This document shows positions 86 through 44,222 of a stretch of DNA of 61,356 nucleotides, piece after piece (position 1 is the stretch's first letter; each line of letters opens with the position of its first letter). The position numbers and the translations under genes are program-made. The notes under the pieces were generated by a model. It made no database searches and was not told the origin of the DNA. It saw only the letters and a program-made list of their open reading frames with translations. The stretch comes from an uncultured Candidatus Saccharibacteria bacterium (GTDB lineage: Bacteria; Patescibacteriota; Minisyncoccia; Phycocordibacterales; UBA6899): assembly GCA_964386905.1 (NCBI GenBank), contig CAYLUP010000004.1, positions 1-61,356 of the forward strand. Direction: 5' to 3'.

Positions 86-493
86 GTGCGGGCAGGGGGT
101 CGGCGTCAGCTCACATCAATATTTTCTTTCGCGATGCTCACAAAATACTAAGTGCTCGCGACCCCGCCTCCGCGACCGTGCGTCGCTCGAAGACTCGCCG
201 ACGACGGTACCCGCGTCCGGCTTTCGATTCCCCCTGCCCGTGCAAAATGAAACCACGGAAATGTTGTCACATTTCCGTGGTCATTTTGTGCGGGGATCAT
301 CGGTCACAAGTCACTAAGTATTTTGTTTCGCCTTGCTCACAAAATACTAAGTGCTCGCGACCCCGCCTCCGCGACCGTGCGTCGCTCGAAGACTCGCCGA
401 CGACGGTACCCGCGTCCGGCTTTCGATTCCCCCTGCCCGTGCAAAATGAAACCACGGAAATGTTGTCACATTTCCGTGGTCATTTTGTGCGGG
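86..493 (-). repeat. tRNA-Gly(TCC)-anchored repeat: two tandem ~200-bp units
   Basis: 160-bp direct repeat at 135-294 and 334-493 (period 199). tRNA 3'-end fragments at 86-99, 288-294 and in the tRNA itself; inverted tRNA 3'-end copies at 223-240 and 422-439. Confidence 0.95.
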
Positions 494-558
494 CAGGGGG
501 AATCGAACCCCCGACACCTGCTTGGAAGGCAGGAGTTTTACCACTAAACTACACCCGC
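488..558 (-). tRNA. tRNA-Gly (TCC)
   Basis: Reverse complement GCGGGTGTAGTTTAGTGGTAAAACTCCTGCCTTCCAAGCAGGTGTCGGGGGTTCGATTCCCCCTGCCCGCA folds as a cloverleaf. Anticodon TCC; CCA not encoded. Confidence 0.95.
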
Positions 559-660
559 ATATTTTTGTTCACATATACTAACAAAGATACACAATTTTGC
601 AAATTACAATTGACCCCCTCATTCCACCTGATATACTCTCGGCAGGCTTTCGGAGTGAAT

Positions 661-1056
661 ATGGTAGAACATGTTCTTTCTCTTCTTCATGAAAAAAGAC
701 AACGAGAGGAGCGCCACCACGCACGCATGCAAATGCTACACAAACGTCTAGTTCGGAATGCACGCGCAATGCTCTGCACATGCTCTGAATGCAATACAAC
801 ATCACGTATTTCGGAATGGAGTTTTGTGCAGCAATACACATTTGATCGTGCTGGCTGGTTTCCAGACGACAGCGAAAAATGTCCAATTCAATGTCCAGCC
901 TGCATGTCACTCAACCGCTTCTCAAGACACAAAGATATTGCGGAAACGTTGCTTCGCCTTTTTCAGGAACATGTTTCACTACACACAATTTTTAAGGAAG
1001 TACTTCATCGTGACGGATCACGAGGGAAAATATTTCATGAACGCATGACGTCGTAA
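661..1056 (+). CDS. Hypothetical protein with Cys clusters (CxCxxC ... CPxxCPxC), possible Zn-binding
   Basis: 3' part of ORF 178-1056. ATG at 661 has GGAG upstream and a TATACT -10-like hexamer further upstream. Confidence 0.6.
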   Translation: MVEHVLSLLHEKRQREERHHARMQMLHKRLVRNARAMLCTCSECNTTSRISEWSFVQQYTFDRAGWFPDDSEKCPIQCPACMSLNRFSRHKDIAETLLRLFQEHVSLHTIFKEVLHRDGSRGKIFHERMTS

Positions 1057-1261
1057 GCAGGGACACCCCTGCTTTTTTGTTACACGTACCAAAACATGCC
1101 GTTGGTTTTTCTCTATTGATGTTACACACATCTGTAAAACGTTATCAGTGCTCACTATCAAAAATGTTATTTTTTTATTTCTTCGCGAGAGCGTATGTTC
1201 TTTTTACGGCAATGTGTGTTTCTCATCAATACATTTTTGAAACACGCAAACGCAGATACAT

Positions 1262-1903
1262 TTACCTCTGTATCGAGAGGGGGCAATTCTCGTGGGCATG
1301 TTTTCTTGCAACACAATATGTTCGCCCATATTGAATAAGGTAATATGTCAGATTCCCCCACTCCTCATTTGGAAATATATGCATAAGATCACGCTCGACA
1401 CGAAGAGGATCACTTGAGGTTGTGTAACCAAGAACACGTGCGATTCGCTTTACATGTGTATCAACAGCAATACCCTCATGAATTCCAAAGAGTCCACTCA
1501 GAACAACATTCGCTGTCTTTCTGCCAACACCTGGAATCGAAACTAATTCAGACATGGTCTTTGGAACTACACCACCATATCGAGAGAGAAGATGTGCTGC
1601 AGCCTCTTGGATATGCTTTGCTTTTGTGCGATAAAATCCTGTTGGGAAAATAATGCGTTCGACTTCTTTTCTTTTTGCAGCCACAAGACTCTCAAGAGTT
1701 GGATACGTTTTAAAAAGCGTTGGTGTCACTCGATTGACCATATCATCCGTGCACTGTGCGGAAAGAATAACTGCAAGCAAAAGCTCATAGCCTTTCGTAT
1801 GATTCAAAAAGAGATACGGCTCAGGAAAAAGTCTCTTCAACTTCTTTAGGTCACTCTGTGCTTTTTGTTGAATATCAATTGCCTTCACCTCTCTACTGTA
1901 CAT
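1262..1903 (-). CDS. nth: Endonuclease III (HhH-GPD DNA glycosylase/AP lyase)
   Basis: Motifs ELLLAVILSAQCTD, HhH LVSIPGVGRKTANVVL and IAVDTHV. The true start may be the GTG a few codons in. Confidence 0.95.
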   Translation of the reverse strand: MYSREVKAIDIQQKAQSDLKKLKRLFPEPYLFLNHTKGYELLLAVILSAQCTDDMVNRVTPTLFKTYPTLESLVAAKRKEVERIIFPTGFYRTKAKHIQEAAAHLLSRYGGVVPKTMSELVSIPGVGRKTANVVLSGLFGIHEGIAVDTHVKRIARVLGYTTSSDPLRVERDLMHIFPNEEWGNLTYYLIQYGRTYCVARKHAHENCPLSIQR

Positions 1904-2040
1904 GAAATTTGTGTCACGAAAAGGGGCTGGCTTTTTTTGCTGCGTATGCTAATATGCAAGAACAATACACAAGCGAGCCTCCGGCGACCATGGATATTGT
2001 ATGCAATTCAATCAAAGTTGAGATAGGTAGCAGCAGCGGT

Positions 2041-2245
2041 CATTCCCGCATATCGGGATCAGAGAGCGGGCGAGCCCGCAGTGATCGTGTGTGCAACGTG
2101 CGAGACAATCAAATATCGGAGTGTGGTGTAACGGCTAACATTCCCGCATATCGGGATCAGAGAGCGGGCGAGCCCGCAGTGATCGTGTGTGCAACGTGCG
2201 AGACAATCAAATATCGGAGTGTGGTGTAACGGCTAACATTCCCGC
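2041..2245 (+). repeat. Exact 98-bp tandem duplication including the 5' half of tRNA-Pro
   Basis: CATTCCCGC recurs at 2041, 2139 and 2237; 2041-2147 equals 2139-2245. Confidence 0.95.
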
Positions 2246-2287
2246 TTTGGGAGCGGGCGACTCAGGGTTCGAATCCCTGCACTCCGA
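2215..2287 (+). tRNA. tRNA-Pro (TGG)
   Basis: CGGAGTG...CACTCCGA acceptor stem, anticodon arm CCCGC-TTTGGGA-GCGGG and TTCGAAT T-loop; CCA not encoded. Confidence 0.95.
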
Positions 2288-2651
2288 CAACGAACGACAT
2301 ACATGGAAACATGTATGTCGTTTTCGTTAACAAAGCATCATGCCGCATAAAAAACTATCCAGGAACAGTACACATGAAACACTGTGCTTGCACGCACCGT
2401 ACAGAAACAATTTTTCTTCAACTTGTTTGCACACACAATATATGTCGAGCACAATACAATAACCACAATTCAACCACACACATCAGCAACGCTTTAATAC
2501 GTGACAAAAACCTTTTGCAAAATTTTTACAACATACATGGACTCGCTCCAACACCTCTACAAAAAAACACACCACAGGAACTACATCACACAGAATACCC
2601 ACGCCCGATCACTACACCTGAGAAAATAAAAAATCGGCACCGCCGATTTTT

Positions 2652-3578
2652 TTATAAAGGATAATACGAATAACTCTTGCGAAAACTTTGTCGCTGCAAT
2701 AAATGTTCTTGCTTCTTTTCAAGCGCATGTAATCTCCTTTCGAGCACCTCATCTCCTCCCCTCTTCTTGTGTAGTGCTGTCACACGCGCCGCATACAACC
2801 GGAGAACTGCATCGCGTTTGTGCTCAATCTCCTTTTTTCGTGCCTCAAAGCGTTCAGCAGTTGCAATCTCTGTAAGATCCGCTTCCATCATTTCTTGAGT
2901 GAGTTCCACGCGTTCGCGTTCAATCGAAGAGAGATCGCGATCTCGCTCAGACTCAATATCGTGAAACGAGAGAAACTCATCGTGTGTCCTTGGAGAATTG
3001 TCATGTTTGTGTGCCATCTCACGGAGTATTGCGCGACGCTCCTTTTCACATGCAGCAAACAACATCGCATCAGCAGATCGACGACCTGTAACACGAGAAA
3101 GTACTGGGCGCTGAAAAAGCGTGTCGACAAGCGTATGGATTTCGTCTGCCTCTCGTTCGTCATCTGTGTGCTCGGGTTCGCAAGCGATGCAATGTGGTAC
3201 CCCAGCTTGCGATAATCCACTTGGATGTTTAGTTGAAAGAGATACTAATCGTTTTACCCAGCGATCAGTACCCCCATCCCCTTGTGGCGATTCAACTGGA
3301 AGCTCATCTGCTGCAAAAAGGGCATTTGCAAGCGTAAGCACATTAGCAATCTCCTTGGCGGCTACAGACCTGTGAATGTCTTCGTGGTCACGAACACGTG
3401 AAGGATGGAGATCGGCCAAAGAAGAAGACTGCATCATGCGATGAATTCGTTCAGCAACTGACGCAACAGTTGCCTTTGCTTCATCAGGAAGCTGGGAGAC
3501 AACCTCACTAACAGCCAGAATCTCATGACTCTCTGGTTTTCTCTCTTCGATATATATGTACGAGTATGTATTTTTCAT
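2652..3578 (-). CDS. Hypothetical protein, charged helical/coiled-coil C-terminus
   Basis: 308-aa ORF with E/R/K-rich heptads; no recognised motif. Confidence 0.7.
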   Translation of the reverse strand: MKNTYSYIYIEERKPESHEILAVSEVVSQLPDEAKATVASVAERIHRMMQSSSLADLHPSRVRDHEDIHRSVAAKEIANVLTLANALFAADELPVESPQGDGGTDRWVKRLVSLSTKHPSGLSQAGVPHCIACEPEHTDDEREADEIHTLVDTLFQRPVLSRVTGRRSADAMLFAACEKERRAILREMAHKHDNSPRTHDEFLSFHDIESERDRDLSSIERERVELTQEMMEADLTEIATAERFEARKKEIEHKRDAVLRLYAARVTALHKKRGGDEVLERRLHALEKKQEHLLQRQSFRKSYSYYPL

Positions 3579-3588
3579 ATAGGTAAAA

Positions 3589-3936
3589 TTACACGGATAC
3601 CGGACTCTTATCTACCTCAACCTCATCGGAGGATGACGACTCATCATCAATCGTCGCAATATCTGCAAGATCAAGCTCTTTCATGACTTTTTCCTCTTCT
3701 TCAAGCACATCATGAAGATGGTGAAGGTTTCCACGGGCATCTAGCTTTTTCTTCAAACTCTTTGCTATTGCATCAACAGCAAATGGATTTTCTTCCGCAG
3801 AAAGAACAAAAAGAGTCAGCATTCCTGAATCAAGATATGGAAGTCTTTCAAACATTAATTGTTTATCAGCATCAGACAAATGGGAGTGTCGTATCACATG
3901 TCGCGCCTTCACAAGAAGTAGTGGATGGTGAGTCAT
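3589..3936 (-). CDS. Hypothetical protein with acidic tail
   Basis: 115-aa ORF, 10 bp upstream of the previous ORF on the same strand. Confidence 0.7.
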   Translation of the reverse strand: MTHHPLLLVKARHVIRHSHLSDADKQLMFERLPYLDSGMLTLFVLSAEENPFAVDAIAKSLKKKLDARGNLHHLHDVLEEEEKVMKELDLADIATIDDESSSSDEVEVDKSPVSV

Positions 3937-4829
3937 AAATAAAGAGCAGTAATAATAAGTATATGTAAGACTATATAATTATGACATACTTCCTCGATTC
4001 CACAATCCACACATCCACTTGTTCCGTAGGAACATACGTACTTGCTCTTCTCTATCGGTTTCACGTGCAACGTAAAAAAGAACCAAAAGAAACAATATTT
4101 GTACATATTCGATGTGCCTATTCCCCTATTTGTTTAGCTGTGAGATAGAACATGTTTCATGTGCAACATGTCGTGTCCAAAATTGAGCATATGATTGTAC
4201 TGATTGATAATAGACCCAAAACACTCTCAGCAAGAAAGTTGCATCTTCTTCAAGAAATACGTACACAACAGACACAAGCAATAAATTTCCGATATACATG
4301 AGGAATATCCAAGAGCATCGAGCACGGAACTGTTTCACGTGAAAACACGTACCAAGTATGGACACCTCAGTTACTCACTAGGTACCTGCGGAAACAGAAA
4401 TATGGCCGCTCAATCAAATAATATATGTCCACGGGCGATATGTTTATATTTCAATCAAAGTATGTGTTACACATGAAATCATACGTAAACATCTAAAATA
4501 ACCAAAAATTCATTTCAATACAGTCAAAATGTCTATAATTTTACAAGTTCGGGCATCACAAAAAAAGAAACAAAACCATATGACTTGTAAAAATCGAATA
4601 AAAAGAAGCGAAAAACGATATGCTGCTATAATCAATTTCCGACAAGAGAAAGTTAGATCAAAACTAAAATCAATTTAGCGATGTCTTCAGCATACTGCTC
4701 ACAATACGTTGAAATACTGTTACACATGAAACTTATGATATATTATGACGGTTTTGATAAAATATGTTCCGTAGTTACATAAATAATACAAATTACGAAA
4801 TCAATCATCACCATGAGTTTCACGTGAAA

Positions 4830-5213
4830 TTATATACTGTCAATATATACATTCTCCCTAAGCTCAATTTCAGCAGTATATGATTGATTATTTAGAGCAA
4901 TGTTCATGAGTGATATGCACCGAGGAAGACGAATAGCCCTGTTTCGCATATAGTGAGTCATAACTGTGACCAAACGCTCAATCTTTTCACGTGTAACATG
5001 TATTCTCGGATGAAATTTGCTTGAAAGACCATATGTTAAAGATGTTTTAACCTCAATACAATGTATCAATCCGTTTTTCTCAGCGATAATATCAATTTCT
5101 CCAACACCATAAAGCTCATAATTTCGATCTACGATTCGATAGCCGACACTTCTCAAGTACCGCACAGCTACAGCTTCTCCAACATTACCGCTCTGTTTAG
5201 CTATACTTACCAT
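4830..5213 (-). CDS. yraN: YraN family (UPF0102) putative endonuclease
   Basis: GxxGExxAxxYL...NY...GEIDIIAEK...IHCIEVKT PD-(D/E)xK pattern. Start trimmed to the ATG at 5213. Confidence 0.9.
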   Translation of the reverse strand: MVSIAKQSGNVGEAVAVRYLRSVGYRIVDRNYELYGVGEIDIIAEKNGLIHCIEVKTSLTYGLSSKFHPRIHVTREKIERLVTVMTHYMRNRAIRLPRCISLMNIALNNQSYTAEIELRENVYIDSI

Positions 5214-5254
5214 ACATATAGTATATATGTGAAATACCCAATATTGCAAATACT

Positions 5255-5441
5255 TGTCCTTTATCCCCATTGTCCACAGGGTTATACACAGTGTCCTTGA
5301 GTGCCACAGCCTTAATACGAGAGTTTTTACACGCAAAAGACAATCCACAATAGTTATGTGGATAAGTCTGTGGACAATGGGGATATCAAGGACATGCTGA
5401 CAGTATGTCCTTTATCCCCACTATCCACAGGGTTATGCACA
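5255..5441. promoter_or_regulatory. DnaA-box cluster made of three ~36-bp modules
   Basis: Perfect TTATNCACA boxes at 5282-5290, 5357-5365 (reverse) and 5433-5441. Near-matches at 5261, 5270, 5341, 5369 (reverse), 5412 and 5421. Confidence 0.8.
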
Positions 5442-5569
5442 TATCGGACATATTAATGTTCAGAGACAAAAGTAGCATTTCTTTTCTATGTCCGAGACCG
5501 TCTTGCACTACATTCTAATGTTCTACATGAAACATACTTTTCCACGCAAGCACCTTTTTGAGGTGCTTG

Positions 5570-5821
5570 CTCTATCCGCAACAGAGAAAGGCCCGGAGGC
5601 CTCTTTCTTTGTGGGGGTAGGGAGATATCTCACACGCTCGCAAGGCTCGCTCCTCGGAAACCCATCCTGAATCATAGTCGTAAATAGTAATTTACTTCTT
5701 GTTCAGGACAGGCTCCGACTCGCTGCCTTCCTCCACAGGGAAACGGCTGTTTCCCCGACCCCCTTCCGTTCTATTCTCCCTACCCGCACAAAGAAAAAAA
5801 GCCTTTCGGCCCTTTTCTTTG
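5570..5821 (-). repeat. tRNA-Gly(GCC)-anchored ~210-bp unit (second core family)
   Basis: Inverted copy of the tRNA 3' end at 5769-5797. Degenerate direct copy TTTCTTTGTGGGGGTAGGGAGA at 5604-5625 versus 5814-5835. Confidence 0.85.
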
Positions 5822-5892
5822 TGCGGGTAGGGAGAATCGAACTCCCGTCTCGTCCTTGGCAAGGACGCATTCTACCACTAAACCATACCCGC
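5822..5892 (-). tRNA. tRNA-Gly (GCC)
   Basis: Reverse complement GCGGGTATGGTTTAGTGGTAGAATGCGTCCTTGCCAAGGACGAGACGGGAGTTCGATTCTCCCTACCCGCA folds as a cloverleaf; CCA not encoded. Confidence 0.95.
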
Positions 5893-5968
5893 GAATTTGT
5901 TGTAGAAGTATATTATCGTATTTCAATATATTTGGCAAGTTAGCGTTTATCGTATATATTGTAGGCAC

Positions 5969-6040
5969 GCTCCTGTGGTGAAGCGGATATCACAACGGTC
6001 TTCGAAACCGTTATCCCAGGTTCGAGTCCTGGCGGGAGCA
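5969..6040 (+). tRNA. tRNA-Arg (TCG)
   Basis: GCTCCTG...CGGGAGCA acceptor stem and anticodon arm ACGGT-CTTCGAA-ACCGT; CCA not encoded. Confidence 0.95.
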
Positions 6041-6275
6041 CAAAAATACAGAGAGAAATGTGCAGCATTTCTCGACATTATTTTTGCTATACGACAGGGC
6101 TCGAAGGCCGGACCCGGGCACCGTCGCGCATGCGCAGCATCGCGCACGGTCGGGGAGGCGGGGTCGCGAGCACAGTATCTCTTGTGCATTCATACAAGGG
6201 ATACTGTGACTTGTGACCGAGTCCTGGCGGGAGCACAAAAATACAAAGAGAAATGTACAACATTTCTCCACATTT
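6041..6275 (+). repeat. tRNA-Arg(TCG)-anchored ~195-bp unit
   Basis: 28-bp exact direct repeat at 6023-6050 and 6218-6245. Core 6101-6173 is homologous to the reverse complement of ~152-226. Confidence 0.92.
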
Positions 6276-6400: not shown

Positions 6401-7885
6401 ATGTCATTACTATCTATACCAAAAGAAATTGCTTTTATTGCGGCAACCCTCGAACACGCAGGCTTTGAGGCATATCTTGTTGGAGGGTGCACGCGTGATC
6501 TCCTTGAAGGGAAAACTCCCAAGGACTGGGACATCACAACCAATGCACGCCCGGAACAAATTATTGCGATCTTTCCTCATACATTCTACGAAAATGATTT
6601 CGGTACTGTTGGTATCGTCAATGACGAGATCCCAGAAGATGATACCGACCGAGCAACTCTCCGTGTTGTTGAAATCACTCCATATCGCACAGAGTCGACC
6701 TACTCAGACCATCGACGCCCAGATGCCGTCAGATTTGCTGACAGTATCTATGAAGACCTTGAACGTCGAGACTTCACAATGAATGCAATCGCGTACAACA
6801 TCGCGAAAGACGAGCTCATCGATCCATACCTTGGTATTACAGACATTCGCAACAAGACTATTCGCGCAGTAGGGGATCCACATTTGCGTTTTACGGAGGA
6901 TGCACTTCGTGTCATGCGTGCAGTCCGCTTTGTTGCCCAACTGGGATTTCAAGTTGAAGAGAAGACGCTTCAGGCTGTCATCAGTCACGCCCCTCTGGTA
7001 CAAAAAATATCCATCGAACGTGTTCGTGACGAATTCTCAAAGCTCATTATGTCCGACAATCCAATGGAGGGAATCGTTTTTCTCCATCGTGTCAATCTCC
7101 TTTCCTATGTTTGCCCAGAACTTATTGAAGGACTTGGCTGTGTGCAAAATAACTCTCACATCTATGATGTCTGGGAGCATAGTCTTCGCGCACTCCAACA
7201 TGCTGCTGACAAAAAATTTCCAATTCATGTTCGCCTTGGAGCACTCTTTCATGATATTGGGAAACCAAAATCTCGCCGATATGCTCCAGAGAGAAAGGAC
7301 TGGACGTTCTATGGGCACGAAGTCATTGGTGCGCGCATGGTAGAAAAAATTCTTGATCGACTCCGGTTCTCCCGAGACATTGTCACAAAGGTGACACTTC
7401 TCGTCCGCTATCATATGTTCTTCTCTGACATCGAGCAAATCACCCTTTCTGCAGTCCGTCGTATCGTTGCAAACGTTGGCGCAGATCTTGTATGGGACCT
7501 TATGTCTGTTCGATCCTGTGATCGCATTGGCATGGGACGCCCACTGGAAACTCCATATCGCCTTCGAAAATATCACTCGATGATTGAAGAAGCGATGCGT
7601 GCACCAGTATCTGTCAAAATGTTAAAGGTCGATGGGGGAGTTATTATGACCGAACTTGGCGAAGCACCTGGACCAAGAGTTGGCGCACTCCTCCATGCAC
7701 TCTTTGATGCAGTGCTCGAAAATCCTGAACTCAACACACGAGAGCAGCTTCTAGACCTCGCTCGCACATACCAATCTCTTTCCCATGACGAGCTTCTTGC
7801 AAAAGGAGAAGCAGGGAAGATGAGCAAAGACGAAGAAGAGAAGAAAGAAATCAAGGAGCTTCGTAAAAAATACCACGTGAAATAA
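6401..7885 (+). CDS. cca: CCA tRNA nucleotidyltransferase with HD domain
   Basis: YLVGGCTRD, DWDITT, DLERRDFTMNAIA, FTEDALRVMRAVRF, and the HD motif H..H...LFHDIGK. Confidence 0.93.
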   Translation: MSLLSIPKEIAFIAATLEHAGFEAYLVGGCTRDLLEGKTPKDWDITTNARPEQIIAIFPHTFYENDFGTVGIVNDEIPEDDTDRATLRVVEITPYRTESTYSDHRRPDAVRFADSIYEDLERRDFTMNAIAYNIAKDELIDPYLGITDIRNKTIRAVGDPHLRFTEDALRVMRAVRFVAQLGFQVEEKTLQAVISHAPLVQKISIERVRDEFSKLIMSDNPMEGIVFLHRVNLLSYVCPELIEGLGCVQNNSHIYDVWEHSLRALQHAADKKFPIHVRLGALFHDIGKPKSRRYAPERKDWTFYGHEVIGARMVEKILDRLRFSRDIVTKVTLLVRYHMFFSDIEQITLSAVRRIVANVGADLVWDLMSVRSCDRIGMGRPLETPYRLRKYHSMIEEAMRAPVSVKMLKVDGGVIMTELGEAPGPRVGALLHALFDAVLENPELNTREQLLDLARTYQSLSHDELLAKGEAGKMSKDEEEKKEIKELRKKYHVK

Positions 7886-9545: not shown

Positions 9546-10328
9546 TTATATCTTCATATCGAGAGAAATAGGGCAGTGATCTGACCCAAGCACAGTGTTG
9601 TGTATTTCTGCAGCACGCATATGTTTTTCCAGAAAAGCATCCACAAAGATGTAGTCTATCCTCCACCCTACATTTCTGTCGCGTGCTCGTGTTTTCATAT
9701 CCCAATAGGAATACGCATCACGAAGCTCAGGGTGAAAATACCGAAAAGAGTCAATGTACTTCGCAGCAACAACCTCATCAATCCATGCTCGCTCCATTGG
9801 GAGAAAGCCCGTATTTTTCTCATTATCTTTTGGACGTGCAAGATCGATTGCTGTGTGTGCAGTATTCACGTCACCCATAAAGATGACCTTTTTCCCTTTT
9901 GTCCGATACGTCTGAATATGTTTCAAAAATGTCTTATAGAAATCCATCTTATAGGACAACCTCTCTTCTCCGCCACCACCATTAGGAAAATAGCAGTTAA
10001 TCACCACAATGTCCTTGAAGTGCGCTGCGATATACCTCCCTTCATCATCAAAACGTGGGGTTCCCATGCCGTACTCTACGGTATCCGGCTTTTCCTTACA
10101 AAAAAGGCCAACTCCGGAATATCCTTTCTTCGTTTGTGATGATGCAAAATAGGCATGCCATTCTTCTCCTCGCACAAAAGGTTTCACGACATCTACTGGG
10201 AGCTGGTCTACGTCTGCCTTAATCTCTTGCACACCAACAACATCAGCGTCTTGCGTGTTTAGCCATTCCAAGAATCCTTTTTTCACTGCCGCGCGAAGTC
10301 CGTTTACATTCCATGATATGAGTTTCAT
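9546..10328 (-). CDS. xth: Exodeoxyribonuclease III
   Basis: MKLISWNVNGLRA, QEIKA, GDVNTAH, GWRIDYIFV and SDHCP motifs. Start trimmed to 10328. Confidence 0.96.
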   Translation of the reverse strand: MKLISWNVNGLRAAVKKGFLEWLNTQDADVVGVQEIKADVDQLPVDVVKPFVRGEEWHAYFASSQTKKGYSGVGLFCKEKPDTVEYGMGTPRFDDEGRYIAAHFKDIVVINCYFPNGGGGEERLSYKMDFYKTFLKHIQTYRTKGKKVIFMGDVNTAHTAIDLARPKDNEKNTGFLPMERAWIDEVVAAKYIDSFRYFHPELRDAYSYWDMKTRARDRNVGWRIDYIFVDAFLEKHMRAAEIHNTVLGSDHCPISLDMKI

Positions 10329-10597
10329 GGAACCAGTATAACAAGATGGGAGAATGGGGTATAGGGGATAGAAGAAAACCACAATATTATCCTGCATACA
10401 GCCCAATAACGTGCCAACAAGAGACGCGGCATATAAATAGAAACACACTGCCCCCTAGCAAAAACACACTCACAATAATGAGTGTGTTTCACTGTAGTTG
10501 TATGGTGAAACGGAGAAGAGATGCTTGGTTAAAGGGGATAGGGTATGGGGTATGGAAAATACACGATACCGAATCCTTTTATCCCATACCCCATAAG

Positions 10598-11545
10598 CTA
10601 CACCCCACCTCCTCTTCTCTTTCCGTGAAACTGTTTATGGATCTCCTGTAATTTCTTATCTGTCACGTGTGTATATATTTGTGTGGTCACAATACTCGAG
10701 TGGCCAAGCATTGCCTGCACAGAACGAATATCTGCACCATTTTCCAAGAGGTCTGTTGCAAAGGAGTGACGTAAGACGTGCGGGGTGACCTTTTTCGTGA
10801 TTCCTGATAGCACCGCATAATGCTTCACAATACGCTCAACTGATCGTGTTGTGATGCGCAATGATTCAGAGCGCTTTGCGAGGTTTTTCTCACCTCCGCG
10901 ACCGATAGAAATAAAGAGTGCTGGATCGACATCTGTCCTTTTTGCAAGATAGTCCTTGATGGACTCTTTTGCATCATCAGACAAAAAGACAACACGGACT
11001 TTTTCGCCTTTTCCGCGAACCGAGAAAAAGTCGCGAGAAAGATCAATATCCCTATCGAGGGACACGAGTTCAGAGACACGCAATCCGGTAGAAAAGAACA
11101 ACTCAAGCATTGCACGATCACGCAAACTTGCGAGATCATCACCCTTTGGGGCACGTAAGAGATTCTGCAGGTCTGTCGTCCCAATCAAATCCAATTCGCG
11201 CTGAGGAACTTTTGCAAGCTCGATTTGCTCTGGCGGCAGACTCCGTACTCCTTGGCGTACAAGGTATTTTAGGAATGCACGTAGTGCAATAAGATAATAA
11301 TTCTGCGTCCTGCGCTTCATGGGAGAGGGGACAACGCCGCGTTTTCCCTGACCGACAACACGACGATTCAACCACATGCGAAATTCACGAACCATATCGC
11401 TCGTAATATCTTCCGGCGCAGACACTTTTGTTTGCTCAACAAACGTCAACAAATAGTGTTCGTAGTTCCGGACCGTATTCAAACTCCGCCCGCGTTCAAT
11501 TTCGGTGTATTCAAGAAATCTTCGGATCCAGTCAGTCATCTTCAT
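10598..11545 (-). CDS. xerC: Tyrosine recombinase XerC/XerD-like
   Basis: RDRAMLELFFSTGLRVSEL, VRGKGEKVR, TPHVLRHSFATDLL and LGHSSIVTTQIYTH. Start trimmed to 11545. XerC versus XerD cannot be resolved. Confidence 0.88.
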   Translation of the reverse strand: MKMTDWIRRFLEYTEIERGRSLNTVRNYEHYLLTFVEQTKVSAPEDITSDMVREFRMWLNRRVVGQGKRGVVPSPMKRRTQNYYLIALRAFLKYLVRQGVRSLPPEQIELAKVPQRELDLIGTTDLQNLLRAPKGDDLASLRDRAMLELFFSTGLRVSELVSLDRDIDLSRDFFSVRGKGEKVRVVFLSDDAKESIKDYLAKRTDVDPALFISIGRGGEKNLAKRSESLRITTRSVERIVKHYAVLSGITKKVTPHVLRHSFATDLLENGADIRSVQAMLGHSSIVTTQIYTHVTDKKLQEIHKQFHGKRRGGGV

Positions 11546-11612
11546 TCCTTGATTATAACAGACGTGTATCACCTGTGGACACAAAACAATAATCTCATGA
11601 TAAAATAAGAAT

Positions 11613-11903
11613 ATGAACTTTCGACCTGAAGGAAACCTACAAGAAGAAATCCTGTCACCAACAGATACACAAATTGCATGGGAGGGCTCTTCTCTCACTA
11701 ATGAGGACTTGCCTCCAATACCTAATGGAATAGAAACGAAGAATGGTATTTTCATCGACGATGGTTTTGGAGACTCCGAGCCCTCTGAGCAAGATTTTCG
11801 ATCTATTGCTGAAGTAAGAGCAGATCTTCTTGCGCGAGGAATCAATCCTGATCAATTCAATTTTGACTTTATCGACGAGTCATTACAAGGATATAGTGAA
11901 TAG
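11613..11903 (+). CDS. Small acidic hypothetical protein
   Basis: 96-aa ORF divergent from xerC. Confidence 0.6.
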   Translation: MNFRPEGNLQEEILSPTDTQIAWEGSSLTNEDLPPIPNGIETKNGIFIDDGFGDSEPSEQDFRSIAEVRADLLARGINPDQFNFDFIDESLQGYSE

Positions 11904-35598: not shown

Positions 35599-37362
35599 AT
35601 GGACCAAATACTTCCACCAGAGGCTGCAGACAATGGACAAGACGTCAACCTTAAAGACATCTTGGCGCCAGCAGCAGTAAAAATAAACCCCAACGAGCTC
35701 TATATTGGATCAAAGATGGCACGAACGCTTTTTGTTATCTCATATCCAAGAAACCTTACCCAAGACTGGTTTACCCCAATCATCAATCTCGACAAGGCGT
35801 ACGATGTATCCATTCACATTCATCCTATTTCAACAGAGGATGCGCTGCACGCATTTCAAAAGAAAGTTGCTGAGGTACAAAGCCAAATTGTCGATCGCGA
35901 AGCAAAAGGTCTTGTTCGTGACCCTATGCTTGATACAGCATATCAAGATCTTGAAAATCTTCGTGACGGACTCCAACAGGCATCAGAAAAGCTGTTTGAT
36001 GTTGGTTTGTATATTACGATATACGGCAATGACACCCAAGACCTCGATAGGGTTGAGAGTGAAATCAAATCGATCCTTGATGCAAAAATGGTATTTCTAA
36101 AGCCCGCGATATTTCAACAGGAAACAGGTTTCCGCTCTATTCTTCCTATTGCAACAGACGAACTTGAAGTACACTACAAGCTTAATTCTGCTCCACTTTC
36201 ATCGATATTTCCATTTGTGTCTTTTGACCTTACTTCTGATAAAGGAATTCTCTGGGGAATCAATCGACACAACGCTTCACTTGTGTTATTCGATCGATTT
36301 TCTATGCCAAACTATAATTCAGTGATGTTTGCAACATCTGGCTCAGGAAAATCATTTACCACAAAACTCGAGATTATCCGAACACTCATGTTCGACGCAG
36401 ATGTTATTGTGATCGACCCAGAGCAAGAATACCTTTTTCTCGCAGAAGCAACTGGGGGAAGATTCTTCAATATCTCTCTTACTTCGGAACACCATATCAA
36501 CCCATTTGATATTCCGGCACCGAGTGAAGACGAAGCCTTTGGTGATGTTCTCCGCTCAAACATTATTTTCTTAGTAGGACTCTTCCGTGTGATGCTTGGG
36601 GGCCTCACTCCAGTAGAAGACGGTATTTTAGACCGAGCAATCACAGAAACCTACGCATTAAAAGACATTAATGAGAACTCAACATGGGACCACATAGAGC
36701 CACCACTTTTAAGTGACCTTGAAATGGTTCTTTCGGGAATGGACGGCACAGAGAACATTCTTTCTCGCCTTGAAAAATACACGCGAGGGACGTGGTCAGG
36801 ATTCCTCAATCAGCCAACAAATGTTGATATTACAAAGCGTTTTACCGTCTTTTGTATTCGCAACATGGAAGAGGAGTTGAAGCCGATTGCTATGCACATC
36901 ATTACGCATCACATTTGGACGGCAGTACGAAAAGAGCTTCGGAAACGTCTTTTGATTGTAGATGAGGCATGGATTATGATGAAATCAGAAGATACCGCCT
37001 CCTTCCTCTTTGGGCTTGCAAAGCGTGGTCGTAAATACTACCTTGGTATTGCAACAATCACTCAAGACGTCAACGACTTCCTTAAATCCCCATACGGACT
37101 CCCAATTCTGACAAACTCATCCATCCAAATTCTACTCAAACAATCCCCAATGACGATCGATGCAGTGCAAAATGCATTCCATTTGACGGATGAGGAGAAG
37201 TTTCTGCTTTTAGAATCTGGAGTAGGAGAGGGCATCTTCTTTGCCGGACTCAAACACGTAGCAATGAAAGTATACGCTTCCTACACAGAAGAGCAGATAA
37301 TTACCTCCGACCCAGCACAAATGCTCGCCATCAAAAAGGCAAAGGCGGATCTTGCAACATAA
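35599..37362 (+). CDS. virB4: VirB4-like conjugal-transfer ATPase
   Basis: Walker A ATSGSGKS, VIDPEQEY, HINPFD, LIVDEAW, KRGRKY and ITQDVNDF. Confidence 0.88.
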   Translation: MDQILPPEAADNGQDVNLKDILAPAAVKINPNELYIGSKMARTLFVISYPRNLTQDWFTPIINLDKAYDVSIHIHPISTEDALHAFQKKVAEVQSQIVDREAKGLVRDPMLDTAYQDLENLRDGLQQASEKLFDVGLYITIYGNDTQDLDRVESEIKSILDAKMVFLKPAIFQQETGFRSILPIATDELEVHYKLNSAPLSSIFPFVSFDLTSDKGILWGINRHNASLVLFDRFSMPNYNSVMFATSGSGKSFTTKLEIIRTLMFDADVIVIDPEQEYLFLAEATGGRFFNISLTSEHHINPFDIPAPSEDEAFGDVLRSNIIFLVGLFRVMLGGLTPVEDGILDRAITETYALKDINENSTWDHIEPPLLSDLEMVLSGMDGTENILSRLEKYTRGTWSGFLNQPTNVDITKRFTVFCIRNMEEELKPIAMHIITHHIWTAVRKELRKRLLIVDEAWIMMKSEDTASFLFGLAKRGRKYYLGIATITQDVNDFLKSPYGLPILTNSSIQILLKQSPMTIDAVQNAFHLTDEEKFLLLESGVGEGIFFAGLKHVAMKVYASYTEEQIITSDPAQMLAIKKAKADLAT

Positions 37363-37422
37363 CAACAGCGAAAGCTGTTTTTATGTTGCAAAAACGTGTA
37401 AAAATTGAGGTATACTATACCT

Positions 37423-38484
37423 ATGGCGCCCCAATTGAGCGGCAAATCATTCAAGGCTGTGTCTCGATCAAAAGCGAGTGTTTCGGCAGGAAAACCACTT
37501 CCATCTAAAAAAGAGATAAGTGGTGCTTTTCAAAAACAAAAACAAGGGTTTCAGGGACCAGTTGCTGGTTATACTGGAAACGAAAAAGAAAAAACAACAA
37601 CAGAAATCATTAATGAATATACAAAAGGAGAAAAATATAGCACGAACACAAAAAACACTCAAAATGAACACAAAGCAATAGGGGAGCGTAATCCTCATAC
37701 GCACCAGATGCAAAGTGCGCATGAGGTTACTGTTCGGCAAATCGAATCTATTGAAGATCCTGAAGAAAAAGAATCCGCAACCAGGCGCATCGAGCGCATA
37801 TATGAAGAGCAGCTCTCCACATCGCCCCCAATTGTGCTTGCAGCGAAACCTGTTGGGGGCATTGGGTATTATGCAACGTTCTTTATTGTCATGGCCAAAG
37901 ACCTTATTGATATTCTTTGGGAAGTAATTAGCCTTTTTGCTGATATCACAGTGATTCTTGGTATTATTACATGGTGCATTAGCACAGTAATGGATATCAT
38001 GGTGTTTCTCATCACATCATTCTACTTTTGGTACGTTGATCTCCACGGTGGAAGCGTTCGTGCAAAAGCACAGACAATTTCCATGTTTACTGAAATTCTT
38101 CCAATTGGTGGGTTTGTCCCTGCACAATCTATGGCATATTGGTGGATTGTGCATCAAGAAAACAAAAGGCGAAAGCGCGAAAAAGAGGAACTCCAACAAC
38201 AAAAAAATATTGAACACCAAGAACGCATTCAATACGCCATAAACGCTCAACAAGAACTCCGTGAAATGTCTATGCAAAACACACATGTCACACAATCTCA
38301 CCAAGACACACAAAACACCCCTCCATCTGTTCGTGCTGGGAATAAAATACCACAACACACATTCCAAAGCACATTTGCACCTCAACCTCATACTCCAGAG
38401 CAGAAAAAAACTGCTACAATACAACAAGAGCAGCAAAGAAGAATACCACCAGCACAAGTCATACAGGCTTCACAAAAACCATGA
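37423..38484 (+). CDS. Hypothetical membrane protein with a Q/T-rich tail
   Basis: Central hydrophobic region and EILPIGGFVP motif; in the operon after virB4. Confidence 0.75.
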   Translation: MAPQLSGKSFKAVSRSKASVSAGKPLPSKKEISGAFQKQKQGFQGPVAGYTGNEKEKTTTEIINEYTKGEKYSTNTKNTQNEHKAIGERNPHTHQMQSAHEVTVRQIESIEDPEEKESATRRIERIYEEQLSTSPPIVLAAKPVGGIGYYATFFIVMAKDLIDILWEVISLFADITVILGIITWCISTVMDIMVFLITSFYFWYVDLHGGSVRAKAQTISMFTEILPIGGFVPAQSMAYWWIVHQENKRRKREKEELQQQKNIEHQERIQYAINAQQELREMSMQNTHVTQSHQDTQNTPPSVRAGNKIPQHTFQSTFAPQPHTPEQKKTATIQQEQQRRIPPAQVIQASQKP

Positions 38485-39440
38485 AATATATACACATCAT
38501 CCTCTTAATCTTGTTCATCCTTCCATATTCTGCCGAACAAGCAAGTCCTATACAGCTTAGAGTGCACGGAGAACCTACTCCGTACTCTTTTGTTTCCATT
38601 TTTGCTGAATCATCATTTCTTGATCTGACAAATACAACAATTGAATGGTCTGCTGATGGTGAACCAATCCATCAAGGAAAAGGTGCGGTAAAACAAGACA
38701 TCTTCCTTGAAGATCCTGGATACCCAAAAGAAATACGCGTGCGCGCAATTACATCACAAGGAGCGGTAGAAGAAACATTGATTATTCTTCCTGGTATTCT
38801 TGATGTTCTCTGGGAAGCACAAACAGTAACTCCACCATTCTTTCGTGGAAAAGCAATTCCAACAGATAGAAGTATTATTCGAGCAATGGCGATCCCATAT
38901 TGGGATAAGAGTATTCCACAAAAAGATATTTTCTTTTCTTGGAAAAAAGATTCTACCATTGCACTTTCAAAAACAAAGGAAATTGCTTCTACACAAATGA
39001 TTGGCGCATGGGAAGGGAAAACCTTAACCATTGACACAACAGCTGAATTTTCTGGTCATTCGCTCACAAAAAAAACAACAATACCAACCCAAAACGTCCG
39101 ACCTCTCTTTTACCGTATCCATCCTTTTACTGGAGTTGAAACAAAAAACACCCTCACAAATCAAGAATATATTCAATCTCCAACCCTCTCTCTCCTTGCT
39201 GTCCCATTTGGATTATCAATCGAGGATGCGAAAAAAAACAAGGTACTCTTCGAATGGAAAGTTAATTCGCAGACAATTGAACATGGAGTCGGTCTTCAAC
39301 ATAGTAGAATCACATTTGCGAAAAACGAACAAGAAAAGAATGGAACCATATCTATTTTTCTTAAAGTTCAAAACACAGTAAATGTTATGCAATATGGGGA
39401 AGCACATATTCAATGGAATACTAACTCAAATACACCATGA
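38481..39440 (+). CDS. Secreted beta-rich (Ig-like) hypothetical protein
   Basis: Signal peptide and WEAQTVTPPFFRGKAIP motif; overlaps the upstream stop. Confidence 0.78.
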   Translation: MKYIHIILLILFILPYSAEQASPIQLRVHGEPTPYSFVSIFAESSFLDLTNTTIEWSADGEPIHQGKGAVKQDIFLEDPGYPKEIRVRAITSQGAVEETLIILPGILDVLWEAQTVTPPFFRGKAIPTDRSIIRAMAIPYWDKSIPQKDIFFSWKKDSTIALSKTKEIASTQMIGAWEGKTLTIDTTAEFSGHSLTKKTTIPTQNVRPLFYRIHPFTGVETKNTLTNQEYIQSPTLSLLAVPFGLSIEDAKKNKVLFEWKVNSQTIEHGVGLQHSRITFAKNEQEKNGTISIFLKVQNTVNVMQYGEAHIQWNTNSNTP

Positions 39441-43874: not shown

Positions 43875-44222
43875 ATGCTTCCACAATCCTACCGTATCCC
43901 AAGACGATCATTCCCTCATCCACAGACAAAAATGCGTACTTGGTTAGGAACCGTATTGAAAATTCGCTCATATAAAGGAGAGGAATCTACATTTCACACA
44001 GCTATTATCACCTCAAAAAAAACATACACCACAAAACCTGAACGCAACCTCTTTAAACGTCGTGTGTGTGCAGCTCTACAAAAGCACCTTCACAAAAGCA
44101 CTCATGTTCCTTGTGATTATGTATTAGTATTTCCACTTATCCACACAAAAGATATTTCGTTTTCTCAGATTGAAAAAGATATAGCGAACTATTTTTCATC
44201 CTCCTTTACAAAAAAAGTATGA
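43875..44222 (+). CDS. rnpA: Ribonuclease P protein component
   Basis: MLPQSYRI...IITSKK...ERNLFKRRV (RNR-like motif); directly after rpmH. Confidence 0.85.
   Translation: MLPQSYRIPRRSFPHPQTKMRTWLGTVLKIRSYKGEESTFHTAIITSKKTYTTKPERNLFKRRVCAALQKHLHKSTHVPCDYVLVFPLIHTKDISFSQIEKDIANYFSSSFTKKV

Follow-up and report, generated by a model that had tools for sequence, protein, structure and literature searches.

Repeats at the 3' ends of tRNA and other genes of Patescibacteria are apparently miniature, gene-less mobile elements of an undescribed family

Introduction

Tyrosine-integrase islands and CIMEs, their derivatives without an integrase, integrate into tRNA and tmRNA genes, either in the T-loop or at the extreme 3' end, and also into protein genes at their 3' ends; they carry a replacement gene end, leave the displaced end as a direct repeat, and accrete in tandem. 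The elements analysed here share these traits, but they measure 125-250 nt, contain no gene, have no linked integrase, include the target sequence in inverted copy and possess a core under single-strand structural selection, and in at least one insertion the partners shared hardly any nucleotide identity. Integron attC sites and the attP(+) site of CTX phage (IMEX) are likewise comparable in that structure counts over sequence, strand-specific hairpins contain wobbles or mismatches, and tandem arrays are formed. The CTX hairpin imitates the duplex of its chromosomal target, and in both systems a single strand exchange is enough, so that heterology can be tolerated. Unlike these sites, the present elements lack R/L boxes (GTTRRRY), an integron platform or a dif target, have dozens of targets, and place the crossover at the very foot of a hairpin rather than between two recombinase-binding boxes.

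IS200/IS605 elements, PATEs and REP/RAYT sequences offer a further parallel, as gene-less, strand-specific hairpin minis without terminal inverted repeats, often situated behind genes, whose ends are set by hairpin feet and whose short hairpin-adjacent 'guides' recognise the target. IS200/IS605 elements use one fixed 4-5 nt target without duplicating or restoring it, whereas the present elements have repeats of 3-57 nt, many targets and two dissimilar end hairpins, and no TnpA or TnpB was seen. IS110 bridge RNAs (seekRNAs) resemble them as structured non-coding segments of ~100-200 nt with target-matching sequence and re-programmable specificity; however, bridge RNAs have two internal loops (target and donor) and adjoin a DEDD recombinase gene, whereas the variable parts here are both arms of one hairpin and there is no recombinase gene. 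DGR target sites and class C group II introns share the orientation-specific insertion at a gene 3' end or after a terminator-type hairpin, but the present elements have neither an RT nor paired template and variable repeats showing A-specific changes, and ribozyme domains are absent, Rfam giving no match.

Repeated units in the window

We analysed a window of 61,356 nt, the whole stretch of contig CAYLUP010000004.1 from an uncultured Candidatus Saccharibacteria bacterium. It carries three copies of one element, a tandem pair behind tRNA-Gly(TCC) and a single copy behind tRNA-Arg(TCG) (Table 1). The positions of both tRNA genes in a first-pass annotation were reproduced by ARAGORN and Rfam, and the repeats that it reported proved real and beyond chance: the 20-mer GGAGGCGGGGTCGCGAGCAC was exact at 152-171(-), 351-370(-) and 6154-6173(+), with 0 occurrences in 100 shuffles, and the 15-mer GTGACTTGTGACCGA was identical at 300-314(-) and 6206-6220(+). 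The GAAATGT..CATTTC hairpin occurred at four places in the window, confined to the Gly-TCC and Arg-TCG units.

Table 1. Positions of the units, their parts and neighbouring tRNA genes in the window
Feature	Position	Strand	Basis
tRNA-Gly(TCC), target gene	488-558 (487/488 start)	-	ARAGORN, Rfam, sequence
Unit 1, replacement copy X (last 18 nt of tRNA-Gly(TCC), T-loop CGA to discriminator)	505-488	-	sequence
Unit 1, trailer and inner terminator-like hairpin, CCACGGAAATGT-GACA-ACATTTCCGTGG with A/T tracts	442-487	-	
Unit 1, antisense arm X' CACGGGCAGGGGGAATCGAA	422-441	-	inverted repeat I4, fold
Unit 1, conserved core (P1, P2, GGG linker, P3/P4)	303-421	-	model R1 match 301-424, 80.6 bits
Displaced tRNA 3' end, truncated, between units 1 and 2, CGATGATCCCCGCA	289-302	-	sequence, alignment A1
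Unit 2, tandem copy, 199-nt period	103-288	-	direct repeat D1, 98%
Unit 2, hairpin	288-243	-	
Unit 2, X'	242-223	-	
Unit 2, core	222-103	-	
Last displaced copy, original tRNA-Gly 3' end, CGA-CCCCCTGCCCGCA	87-102	-	direct repeat D8, sequence
tRNA-Pro(TGG)	2215-2288	+	
tRNA-Gly(GCC)	5821/5822-5892	-	
Family 2 (sister-family) unit behind tRNA-Gly(GCC)	5587-5820	-	I5, D9, sequence
Family 2 unit, palindrome arms	5813-5842/5768-5797	-	
Family 2 unit, core	5767-5626	-	
Family 2 unit, displaced copy	5625-5587	-	
tRNA-Arg(TCG), target gene	5969-6040/41	+	ARAGORN, Rfam
Arg unit, replacement copy X	6023-6040	+	
Arg unit, trailer and inner hairpin, GAGAAATGT-GCAGC-ATTTCTC	6041-6079	+	
Arg unit, antisense arm X' ATTTTTGCTATACGACAGGGCTCGAA, imperfect complement of 6022-6047	6080-6105	+	folds
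Arg unit, conserved core (P1/P2/P3/P4)	6106-6217	+	model R1 match 6103-6219, 48.1 bits
Displaced copy, tRNA-Arg T-loop CGA to end, with trailer and hairpin	6218-6274	+	direct repeat D4

The two 199-nt units behind tRNA-Gly(TCC) were 98% identical (120-294 versus 319-493). Inverted tRNA copies, as described earlier, were present in both: the arms at 215-250 and 414-449 were complementary to 480-515 (36 nt, 86%), and in unit 1, X' is the complement of the tRNA from T-loop to discriminator and closes a long palindrome. The inverted copy of the Arg unit was more degenerate than its Gly-TCC counterparts. The direct copies were also real, long at Arg (6023-6079 versus 6218-6274, 57 nt, 93% identity) and short at Gly (302-289 truncated, 102-87 final, the latter followed by unrelated host sequence), but they start in the T-loop (TT/CGA) rather than at the tRNA 3' end to which they had been assigned. 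The terminal GTGACTTGTGAC of the core lay at 314-303 in Gly unit 1 and at 6206-6217 in the Arg unit, while the right end of the Gly unit 2 core was degenerate (model R1 match 103-225, 34.4 bits). To the two tRNAs for which this layout had been noted, we add a third, tRNA-Gly(GCC), whose family 2 unit has the layout of the other three copies with a different core; L125 and L127 contain orthologues and relatives of this unit.

Element anatomy and the foreign gene end

The element is non-coding and ~125-250 nt long, with a core of ~70-130 nt. Read in the sense of the target, a unit begins with the replacement copy X, which runs from the insertion point to the gene end, and its trailer, followed by a terminator-like hairpin, the antisense arm X', the conserved core (P1/P2, P3/P4) with its invariant ...GTGAC, and the displaced old target end. 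X, hairpin and X' constitute a single long hairpin with the left junction at its 5' foot, and the right junction, directly after GTGAC, is the last base pair of the core. The gene is restored, and its displaced old 3' end stays downstream as a direct repeat. X' is complementary to the target at the insertion point, reaching 1-2 nt across.

The displaced copies of ftsZ and rplL differed at 10/36, 10/36 and 6/18 nt with 0 amino-acid changes, and the longest identical run between the replacement and displaced ends of rplL was 3 nt. Since these differences are synonymous only, the replacement end is foreign and carried by the element. X' agreed with the functional copy, not with the displaced copy. 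Two paralogous copies in L109 (tRNA-Lys and tRNA-Leu) agreed at every position from the end of the tRNA through GTGAC, outside of which they were unrelated. The left copy and the antisense arm move together with the element. The flanks had been described as copied from the host tRNA; they do match it, but the synonymous-only differences and the L109 paralogues indicate that they are element-borne.

One unlikely but serious possibility is that the core is an RNA or ssDNA scaffold for an effector and the antisense arm a programmable guide that base-pairs with the target strand, its end fixing the exact cut site. This logic would be analogous to IS200/IS605 DNA guides, IS110 bridge RNAs and omega-RNAs. 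The only constant of the variable arm is its complementarity spanning the left junction (4-6 nt at 3'-end insertions, 12-16 nt at some ftsZ insertions, and up to ~40 nt in the T-loop); the 3' arm of the palindrome stopped exactly 1 nt short of P1 in 58 of 88 elements; near-identical cores sit at differing targets in L078 and in L109; and a conserved G.U lies close to the joining site. However, no effector was linked within ±4 kb of the cores, and to our knowledge none has been identified. The integrated arm is already paired in cis with the element's own target copy, guides so unequal in length would be unusual, and the upstream terminator-like hairpin speaks against efficient transcription of the core.

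Structure of the core

In the core alignment, which was fitted to the structure of the model and in which P3 was fixed by the search pattern for most sequences, 97.4% of cells were paired and double changes occurred in 16 of 18 pairs. The double-change cells numbered 261, compared with 71.6 ± 6.3 in shuffles and at most 35 in slid alignments. P1 and P2a covaried among GC, CG and AU, and P3 showed compensatory variants among relatives. The sense strand of the unit forms three hairpins with linkers of ~1, 3 and 0 nt, and the predicted fold is a three-way junction where both element ends meet; the Arg unit folded as ssDNA gave exactly three hairpins (-56.1 kcal/mol, z -9.3), and the antisense-strand fold was 11 kcal/mol worse. 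A G.T/U wobble in P3 was conserved in 125 of 130 sequences, and the palindrome mismatches comprised 62 G.T versus 29 A.C. Among the loops, which look DNA-like in type, C(GNA)G triloops are the prevailing form and few are of the GNRA or UUCG type. An RNA would be equally compatible with the conserved G.U pairs and with read-through out of strongly expressed genes.

Distribution and targets

A wider search of metagenome contigs with the loosened pattern GGGGTCGCGAGCAC..GTGACNNGTGAC revealed more than 120 further copies, and one copy lay behind tRNA-Glu in a Saccharibacteria MAG. Because more than 120 independent contigs, measuring up to 710 kb, share this architecture, an assembly artefact, raised as a concern in the first-pass annotation, is excluded. 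No copies were found in viral, plasmid or phage collections, Rfam 15 gave no match, and the searchable literature yielded no description of the family, consistent with the initial impression that it is undescribed.

Among the 99 cores with sufficient upstream sequence, 60 were located within 200 nt downstream of a same-strand tRNA or tmRNA gene, representing 25 anticodons plus tmRNA. The elements target no fewer than 25 tRNA species and tmRNA, besides the terminal codons of ftsZ and rplL, and are invariably oriented like the target gene. The tRNA junctions fall at TT/CGA in the T-loop or at about -3 from the ARAGORN-called tRNA end, that is, at a position adjoining the discriminator. Near-identical cores occupied differing targets on one contig, ftsZ and tRNA-Glu in L078 and tRNA-Lys and tRNA-Leu in L109. 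The family is not tRNA-specific, and its matches do not always lie 3' of tRNAs. The earlier proposal of a non-autonomous, tRNA-targeting mini-element amplified in tandem is essentially right, yet too narrow, because the same core is also found at the 3' ends of tmRNA, ftsZ and rplL.

Targets that are all 3' ends of highly expressed RNAs, used in one orientation, could also suggest that the core RNA is copied by a cellular RT, with template switching or snap-back at terminator hairpins producing the inverted copy and the duplication. The discrete, hairpin-defined core ends, the terminator hairpin at the centre of the palindrome and the insertion class adjoining the discriminator agree with such retro-insertion. 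We nevertheless consider it very improbable, since there is no RT in the window or next to 120 copies, no CCA, poly-A or A-biased change, the element brings its own inner hairpin and trailer instead of copying them at the new site, the replacement ends of the genes are of foreign origin, and the loop types look DNA-like. For a primer-binding site used in tRNA-primed reverse transcription, as also suggested, the evidence is unfavourable: there is no CCA complement, X' includes trailer sequence, and no RT was seen in the window or beside 120 copies. The further suggestion, decoy att sites, is unsupported.

Turnover and linked enzymes

Tandem and nested pile-ups of units were common, and copies pile up and decay. 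Comparison of relatives, as recommended at the outset, revealed both filled and empty sites: the tRNA-Arg site was empty in an 80%-identity relative and filled in the window and in 74% relatives, and the tRNA-Pro site was filled in L125 and unfilled in the window. The same three tRNAs carry family elements in genomes only 74% identical in a housekeeping protein, and in such a relative the substitutions keep the structure. These shared sites could reflect long vertical persistence, perhaps with a host function, rather than frequent movement.

Retention at the same three tRNAs with structure-preserving substitutions, and a position always just behind a gene, would suit a non-mobile host cis-module (a terminator, processing signal or tRNA 3'-end regulator) subject to local duplication and gene conversion only. 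This explanation is scarcely credible, because elements also occupy the coding ends of ftsZ and rplL, where the replacement codons are foreign, empty sites exist, copies accumulate and decay, near-identical cores occur at unrelated targets in one genome, and the G+C content of the core is ~0.6 compared with 0.36-0.49 for the window. The variant proposed earlier, an RNA cis-element controlling tRNA maturation, finds no support: protein genes are targets too, one relative has an empty site, and the core is preceded by a terminator-like hairpin.

No mobilising protein was enriched within ±4 kb of the cores. The window, in which no mobilising enzyme had been seen, does contain a tyrosine-recombinase ORF (10598-11845), but it is Xer-like, lies 4 kb off and is syntenic in relatives. 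Its presence would accord with a distinctly unlikely alternative, namely double-stranded, CIME-like 'attP-only' mini-cassettes that have lost their integrase and are inserted and excised by a tyrosine integrase elsewhere, the core holding protein-binding arm sites. The insertions fall in the T-loop, at the extreme 3' end and possibly in the anticodon loop (window 2041-2236; L125 7440-7640), which matches the three sublocations known for tyrosine integrases and reportedly distinguished by Williams in 2002. Gene restoration, direct repeats of variable length, the tmRNA target and tandem accretion point the same way. However, the recombinase is 82% conserved versus 74% for its neighbours, and no tyrosine-recombinase homologue was found in 120 metagenome loci (~700 kb around the copies). 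Moreover, compensatory covariation, freely varying hairpin sequences and strand-specific wobbles are constraints on a single strand, not on double-strand binding sites; the identity run of at most 3 nt between element-borne and displaced rplL ends is too short for a 6-8 bp overlap region; and duplex DNA circularised at 125-200 bp would be very rigid.

Discussion

We favour, at a probability of roughly 0.55, the interpretation that these units are miniature non-coding, non-autonomous elements with site-specific insertion, acting in the form of a folded single strand and mobilised in trans by an enzyme. Judging from structure, the element would move as a folded single strand, with DNA likelier than RNA. 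An enzyme whose gene lies elsewhere in the genome may cut and join the element at the three-way junction; candidates are HUH, tyrosine-recombinase and junction-resolvase types of strand-transferase, and the conserved P3 hairpin would be the handle of this enzyme. The target may be defined by the antisense arm, which would either pair with it or mimic it in double-stranded form, and re-targeting could occur by change of the outer palindrome arms. In the rplL event, the arm would match the recipient site at only ~9/14 positions, so insertion does not require a long guide and perhaps makes no use of one. A classical double-strand tyrosine-integrase reaction would likewise yield T-loop and 3'-end sublocations, restored genes, direct repeats and tmRNA as a target.

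The repeats are thus apparently miniature, gene-less mobile elements of Patescibacteria belonging to an undescribed family, and the antisense copy that each carries of its own insertion site hints at a possibly re-targetable insertion mechanism.

Layout of the units in the window

The first-pass annotation had reported two exact words recurring behind tRNA genes, and both lie where it placed them: the 20-mer at 152-171 and 351-370 on the minus strand and at 6154-6173 on the plus strand, a recurrence not attributable to chance (0 in 100 shuffles), and the 15-mer at 300-314 (minus) and 6206-6220 (plus). The tandem pair that it described 3' of tRNA-Gly(TCC), one of four tRNA genes in the window, consists of two 199-nt units that are 98% identical. 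In tRNA sense, the order it gave was also recovered: tRNA 3' end, A/T-flanked hairpin, inverted tRNA copy, GC-rich core, second hairpin, GTGACTTGTGAC and direct tRNA copy. The inverted copy spans the tRNA from T-loop to discriminator, and the direct copy begins at the CGA of the T-loop. No ORF was found inside the units, and RNA folds of tRNA plus unit gave z-scores of -12 and -10.

The unit behind tRNA-Gly(GCC) has a layout identical to that of the other units but a different core. It contains a 30-nt palindrome (97%) taking in the tRNA end, then ~140 nt of structured sequence, followed by a direct copy of the tRNA end and a hairpin. Sister units of this second family occur in syntenic relatives of the window, behind tRNA-Gly(GCC) and tRNA-Pro in one and behind tRNA-Arg in another, and their core was not detected by R1, the covariance model of the main core family. 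That units with unrelated cores are built alike suggests that their architecture reflects mechanism.

Upstream of tRNA-Pro, the window carries a perfect 98-bp tandem duplication. Each unit comprises 67 nt with small GC hairpins, preceded by the 5' half of tRNA-Pro as far as the anticodon stem (CGGAGTG...CATTCCCGC), the junction being the start of the anticodon loop. An analogous duplicated tRNA-Arg 5' half, with an insert of ~120 nt, lies at 7440-7640 of the syntenic relative L125. The two may represent a third, anticodon-loop class of small insertion.

Features located in the window (positions in nt of the forward strand)
Feature	Position	Strand	Remark
tRNA-Gly(TCC)	487/488-558	-	tRNA call
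Tandem duplication at tRNA-Pro	2041-2236		
tRNA-Pro(TGG)	2215-2288	+	tRNA call
DnaA-box-like cluster	5261-5441		
Unit behind tRNA-Gly(GCC)	5587-5820		different core
tRNA-Gly(GCC)	5821-5892	-	tRNA call
tRNA-Arg(TCG)	5969-6040/41	+	tRNA call
Exo/endonuclease/phosphatase-family gene	9546-10448		conserved neighbour of tyrosine-recombinase ORF
Tyrosine-recombinase ORF	10598-11845		Xer-like; only one in window
Same-strand genes, T4SS-like in appearance	35599-42305		
Likely replication origin	44137-47564		perfect DnaA boxes at 44137, 44569
dnaA	44667-46052		
dnaN	46461-47564		

Copies elsewhere and their targets

We searched 185,579 species genomes with the exact 20-mer and obtained one true match, in a Saccharibacteria MAG, where a minimal version of ~125 nt lies 3' of tRNA-Glu(CTC) with its parts in the same order. 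Three further matches, in high-GC actinobacteria, were rejected as chance, having no model match. The exact 20-mer is too narrow a search pattern because it includes the variable P1 triplet of the core. A looser two-block pattern matched at least 120 metagenome contigs. Among the matches listed there were 120 distinct cores, 99 of them with at least 150 nt of upstream sequence, and 60 of these 99 had a same-strand tRNA or tmRNA no more than 200 nt upstream, with no fewer than 25 anticodons plus tmRNA represented. By our own rough estimate (~1 Mb genome, ~45 tRNAs), the chance expectation for such placement is well under 1%. The expectation that cores lie 3' of tRNAs was thus borne out for these 60 but not as an exclusive rule, since the core is also found at the last codons of ftsZ (at least six loci) and rplL (at least two loci) among the matches listed. 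Copies are often found at the ends of contigs, where a repeat that interrupts assembly would be expected. No copies were found in viral contigs (two patterns), PLSDB plasmids or GenBank phages. By the names of its closest CCA-enzyme homologues, the organism of the window is Parcubacteria-like, so with the Saccharibacteria MAG the elements span at least two Patescibacteria lineages.

Replacement ends and junctions

In filled ftsZ and rplL genes, the last 5-11 codons are an element-side copy, and the displaced copy lies behind the core. In the best-preserved cases, the two copies differ at 10/36 and 10/36 nt (ftsZ) and at 6/18 nt (rplL), all differences being synonymous and the encoded peptide identical. 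A dead copy drifting after insertion would gain mostly non-synonymous changes, so both copies must have evolved under coding constraint in different lineages, and the replacement end was therefore brought by the element, across lineages. The antisense arm in these cases matches the functional element-side copy and not the displaced one. A tyrosine-integrase overlap is an identical segment of ~6-8 bp; the direct repeats at tRNAs (15-57 nt) contain one of this kind, and the longest identical run between the repeats is 3 nt at rplL and 8-12 nt at ftsZ. Two copies on one contig, at tRNA-Lys and tRNA-Leu, are near-identical from the last tRNA bases to GTGAC and unrelated beyond, which defines the right boundary and shows that the core travels as one piece with the antisense arm, inner hairpin and trailer.

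Two classes of left junction were distinguished at tRNAs. In the T-loop class, the repeat runs from TT|CGA, typically for 18-22 nt and for up to 57 nt with trailer; the antisense arm covers the T-stem 3' strand and acceptor, and the palindrome arms are ~41-43 bp. In the 3'-end class, the start adjoins the discriminator (~-3 from the tRNA end as called by ARAGORN), 3-8 nt are shared (CA(A/C)A), the palindrome arms are ~23 bp, and the antisense arm matches the tRNA over 4-6 nt only. The inner palindrome of this class (..GCGTTAAGAAA-stem-CTGC-stem-TTTTTAGC..) is conserved across different tRNAs, with compensatory stem changes. In some ftsZ copies the antisense arm is only 12-16 nt and matches junction-proximal sequence alone. 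All that stays constant across the junction classes is that the arm is complementary to sequence on both sides of the left junction. In 58 of the 88 distinct elements, exactly 1 nt separates the end of the 3' palindrome arm from the first core helix.

Further small motifs were observed. T-loop elements at three metagenome loci (L021, L012, L032) carry an extra small CTGC-loop hairpin in the antisense arm, e.g. GCGAGTGAA-CTGC-TTCACTCGC, between its acceptor-complementary and T-stem-complementary parts; it is the inner hairpin of the 3'-end elements, and the family looks modular. The motif GGTGTACAG(A/T)(A/T)CCTGTAAGG, a TACAG/CTGTA hairpin, lies ~5-45 nt after GTGAC at L022 and L065, preceded there by an inverted copy of the tRNA-Lys acceptor strand, and also inside the long P2 arms of L017, L061 and L090.

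Gain, loss and pile-ups

The first-pass annotation had proposed comparing relatives for filled and empty sites, and both were found. The tRNA-Arg site is empty in a relative of 80% identity (L128) and filled in two of 74% (L125, L127), where the copies have diverged with their structure preserved; tRNA-Pro is empty in the window and carries a second-family unit in L125. At tRNA-Gly(TCC), the window and L125 hold two units each. Arrays and nested remnants are common, with four copies in 2 kb at L032 and a decaying pile behind tRNA-Lys at L056, and behind 3'-end elements there also lies the tail of an older T-loop element with its displaced tRNA end. The elements are thus both gained or lost and long-lived. 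A purely host function for the units is contradicted by the protein-gene targets, the empty sites and the decay. Taken together, the results show that the family consists of miniature, non-coding, site- and orientation-specific insertion elements that restore their target.

At L010 (1-1200), tRNA-Glu (53-124) is separated from a displaced copy of its last bases (~996-1008) by two small ORFs (145 and 114 aa); degenerate and intact elements follow. This could be a cargo-carrying insertion of ~0.9 kb at the tRNA-Glu 3'-end site.

Fold of the core

The core structure was derived from an alignment of 40 cores. It comprises P1 (3 bp), a variable hairpin P2 with three covarying basal pairs, and P3, a 12-bp helix that has a bulged A and ends in the variable hairpin P4. 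Pairs were counted in 130 model-aligned copies; P3 is fixed by the search pattern in most rows. In this alignment, which was fitted to the model, paired cells make up 97.4%, double changes occur at 16 of 18 pairs, and double-change cells number 261 vs 71.6±6.3 in shuffles and no more than 35 in the slid controls. Independent compensatory P3 variants occur in relatives L125 and L127. One P3 G.U(T) pair is kept in 125 of 130 copies, palindrome mismatches are more often G.T (62) than A.C (29), and the ssDNA fold of the Arg unit (-56.1 kcal/mol, z -9.3) consists of exactly three hairpins joined by linkers a few nt long, the opposite strand of the unit folding 11 kcal/mol worse. The core fold is thus strand-specific, and the results show that the sense strand of the element is under selection for the three-hairpin fold.

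Such a fold implies that the unit, as a circle or in tandem, would form a three-way junction; in the predicted fold, P3 runs without a linker into the palindrome 5' arm, and the ends of the element meet there. Apical loops are mainly C(GNA)G triloops, with GNRA and UUCG rare. C-G-closed GNA triloops such as d(GCGAAGC) were reportedly found by Hirao and colleagues to form exceptionally stable DNA mini-hairpins. Because of these loops and the terminator-like hairpin before the core, we tentatively favour DNA rather than RNA as the structured form.

Search for a mobilising enzyme

The first-pass annotation had seen no mobilising enzyme in the window. Pfam scans of 40 window ORFs indeed detected no RT, transposase or HUH protein, and no TnpA (HUH Y1) was seen in the 61-kb window, but one Xer-like tyrosine recombinase, syntenic in relatives, is present. 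As a tblastn query against all loci, it matched only in syntenic relatives, and no tyrosine-recombinase homologue was found in the 120 metagenome loci among the matches listed. Its ORF is 415 aa as listed; the syntenic homologues (314 aa) align from residue ~97, so that the real start is probably downstream. When the ORFs of 120 aa or longer found up to 4 kb to either side of the 120 cores among the matches listed were all clustered, no mobilising family was enriched and the recurring families were housekeeping only.

These results bear on two of the main rivals. The junctions are well accounted for if a classical integrase acts on a double-stranded "attP-only" cassette, but the single-strand covariation, the missing integrase and the rplL event do not fit such a reaction. 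Retro-insertion conflicts with the carried trailer, and no RT was found among the 40 scanned window ORFs or near the cores. We favour a model in which the element would move as a folded single strand, with a trans-acting enzyme cutting and joining it at the three-way junction; P3 would serve as a handle, and the antisense arm would define the target.

Other features of the window

Eight DnaA-box-like 9-mers (TTATCCACA, at most one mismatch) lie within 180 bp, inside 36-nt direct/inverted repeats between a UPF0102/NERD gene and tRNA-Gly(GCC), ~40 kb from dnaA; L125 has a similar cluster at the syntenic place (6660-7010). The cumulative GC-skew minimum falls at ~44-46 kb, where the dnaA-dnaN region is likely the replication origin. 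Lagging-strand bias of the elements was rejected, as the three loci in the window, all in one replichore, are not confined to a single strand. The same-strand genes that look like a T4SS cluster include a VirB4/TraG-type ATPase and a type IV secretion pilin-domain protein, and several ORFs among them had no Pfam match.

Comparison with known systems

The family had been taken as undescribed, and we likewise found no description in Rfam 15 or the literature, including searches with the conserved sequences as text. At gathering score, Rfam 15 returned tRNAs only, and at E<=10 the units gave generic hairpin/miRNA noise. The elements are non-autonomous site-specific insertion elements without a previous description in these sources, and they fail at least one defining feature of every known system compared.

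Tyrosine-integrase elements and CIMEs likewise enter tRNA, tmRNA or protein genes in their 3' part, with element-borne restoration and a flanking direct repeat, but have an integrase gene inside or beside them (a CIME may instead have a cognate integrase-bearing element at its site), and none is linked here. MITEs have terminal inverted repeats, a fixed-length target-site duplication and a related autonomous IS, whereas the present ends are not inverted copies of each other, the repeats range over 3-57 nt, and no parent was found near the 120 cores or in viral contigs, plasmids or phages. IS200/IS605 miniatures (PATEs) share subterminal hairpins, strand-specific structure and the lack of terminal inverted repeats, but they make no target duplication and insert 3' of one fixed tetra- or pentanucleotide, whereas here the direct repeats reach 57 nt and the targets differ and number in the dozens. 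Integron attC sites carry R''/R' (RYYYAAC / GTTRRRY) in cassette arrays next to intI/attI; the present ends, from the replacement copy (X) to GTGAC, are not GTTRRRY, and the neighbours are housekeeping genes. IS110 bridge-RNA elements have an adjacent DEDD recombinase gene and separate target and donor internal loops, whereas the present units hold no ORF, and their internal loops are conserved and hairpin arms variable. Retrons and tRNA-primed retroelements have an adjacent RT, found neither among the scanned window ORFs nor near the cores, and the PBS of the latter is complementary to the mature tRNA end including CCA, whereas the arm here covers the trailer and lacks TGG.

Three other candidates were rejected: a self-cleaving ribozyme or retrozyme-like tandem unit (no Rfam match; the unit does not end in a known cleavage context), a tRNA-like minihelix from X'-core-X, X' being the antisense arm (it fails at protein genes, where X' matches the upstream and not the downstream copy), and a casposon- or DDE-type staggered cut (repeat length not fixed).

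Significance

In junction behaviour the elements resemble tyrosine-integrase islands and CIMEs, in build IS200/IS605 miniatures and folded attC or CTX substrates, and in logic guide-bearing elements. A true guide mechanism is attractive, but no effector was found for it. We consider it possible, though rather unlikely, that the family represents a new class of programmable, re-targetable mini element, in which a ~100-nt hairpin scaffold and a short antisense arm that alone sets the joining site would act with a candidate enzyme, possibly a housekeeping one, via a single-stranded three-way junction. Natural re-targeting could then have reached at least 25 tRNA species, tmRNA, ftsZ and rplL, each version carrying a gene repair patch.

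To our knowledge, gene-restoring insertion, hairpin-only miniatures and a target-matching arm beside a conserved scaffold have not been known together before; they recall, respectively, integrases, single-strand transposons and guide-bearing elements. If the antisense arm sets the target, the family would offer a new, very compact way to direct DNA insertion and would point to a so far unrecognised enzyme. The genomes of Patescibacteria are tiny and few mobile elements have been recognised in them, yet this family seems to be present at many of their tRNA loci and is a repeated cause of broken assemblies. On the conservative reading too, it accounts for duplicated tRNA ends and broken contigs in candidate-phyla genomes, is a marker for strain-level variation, and should be masked or modelled in annotation.
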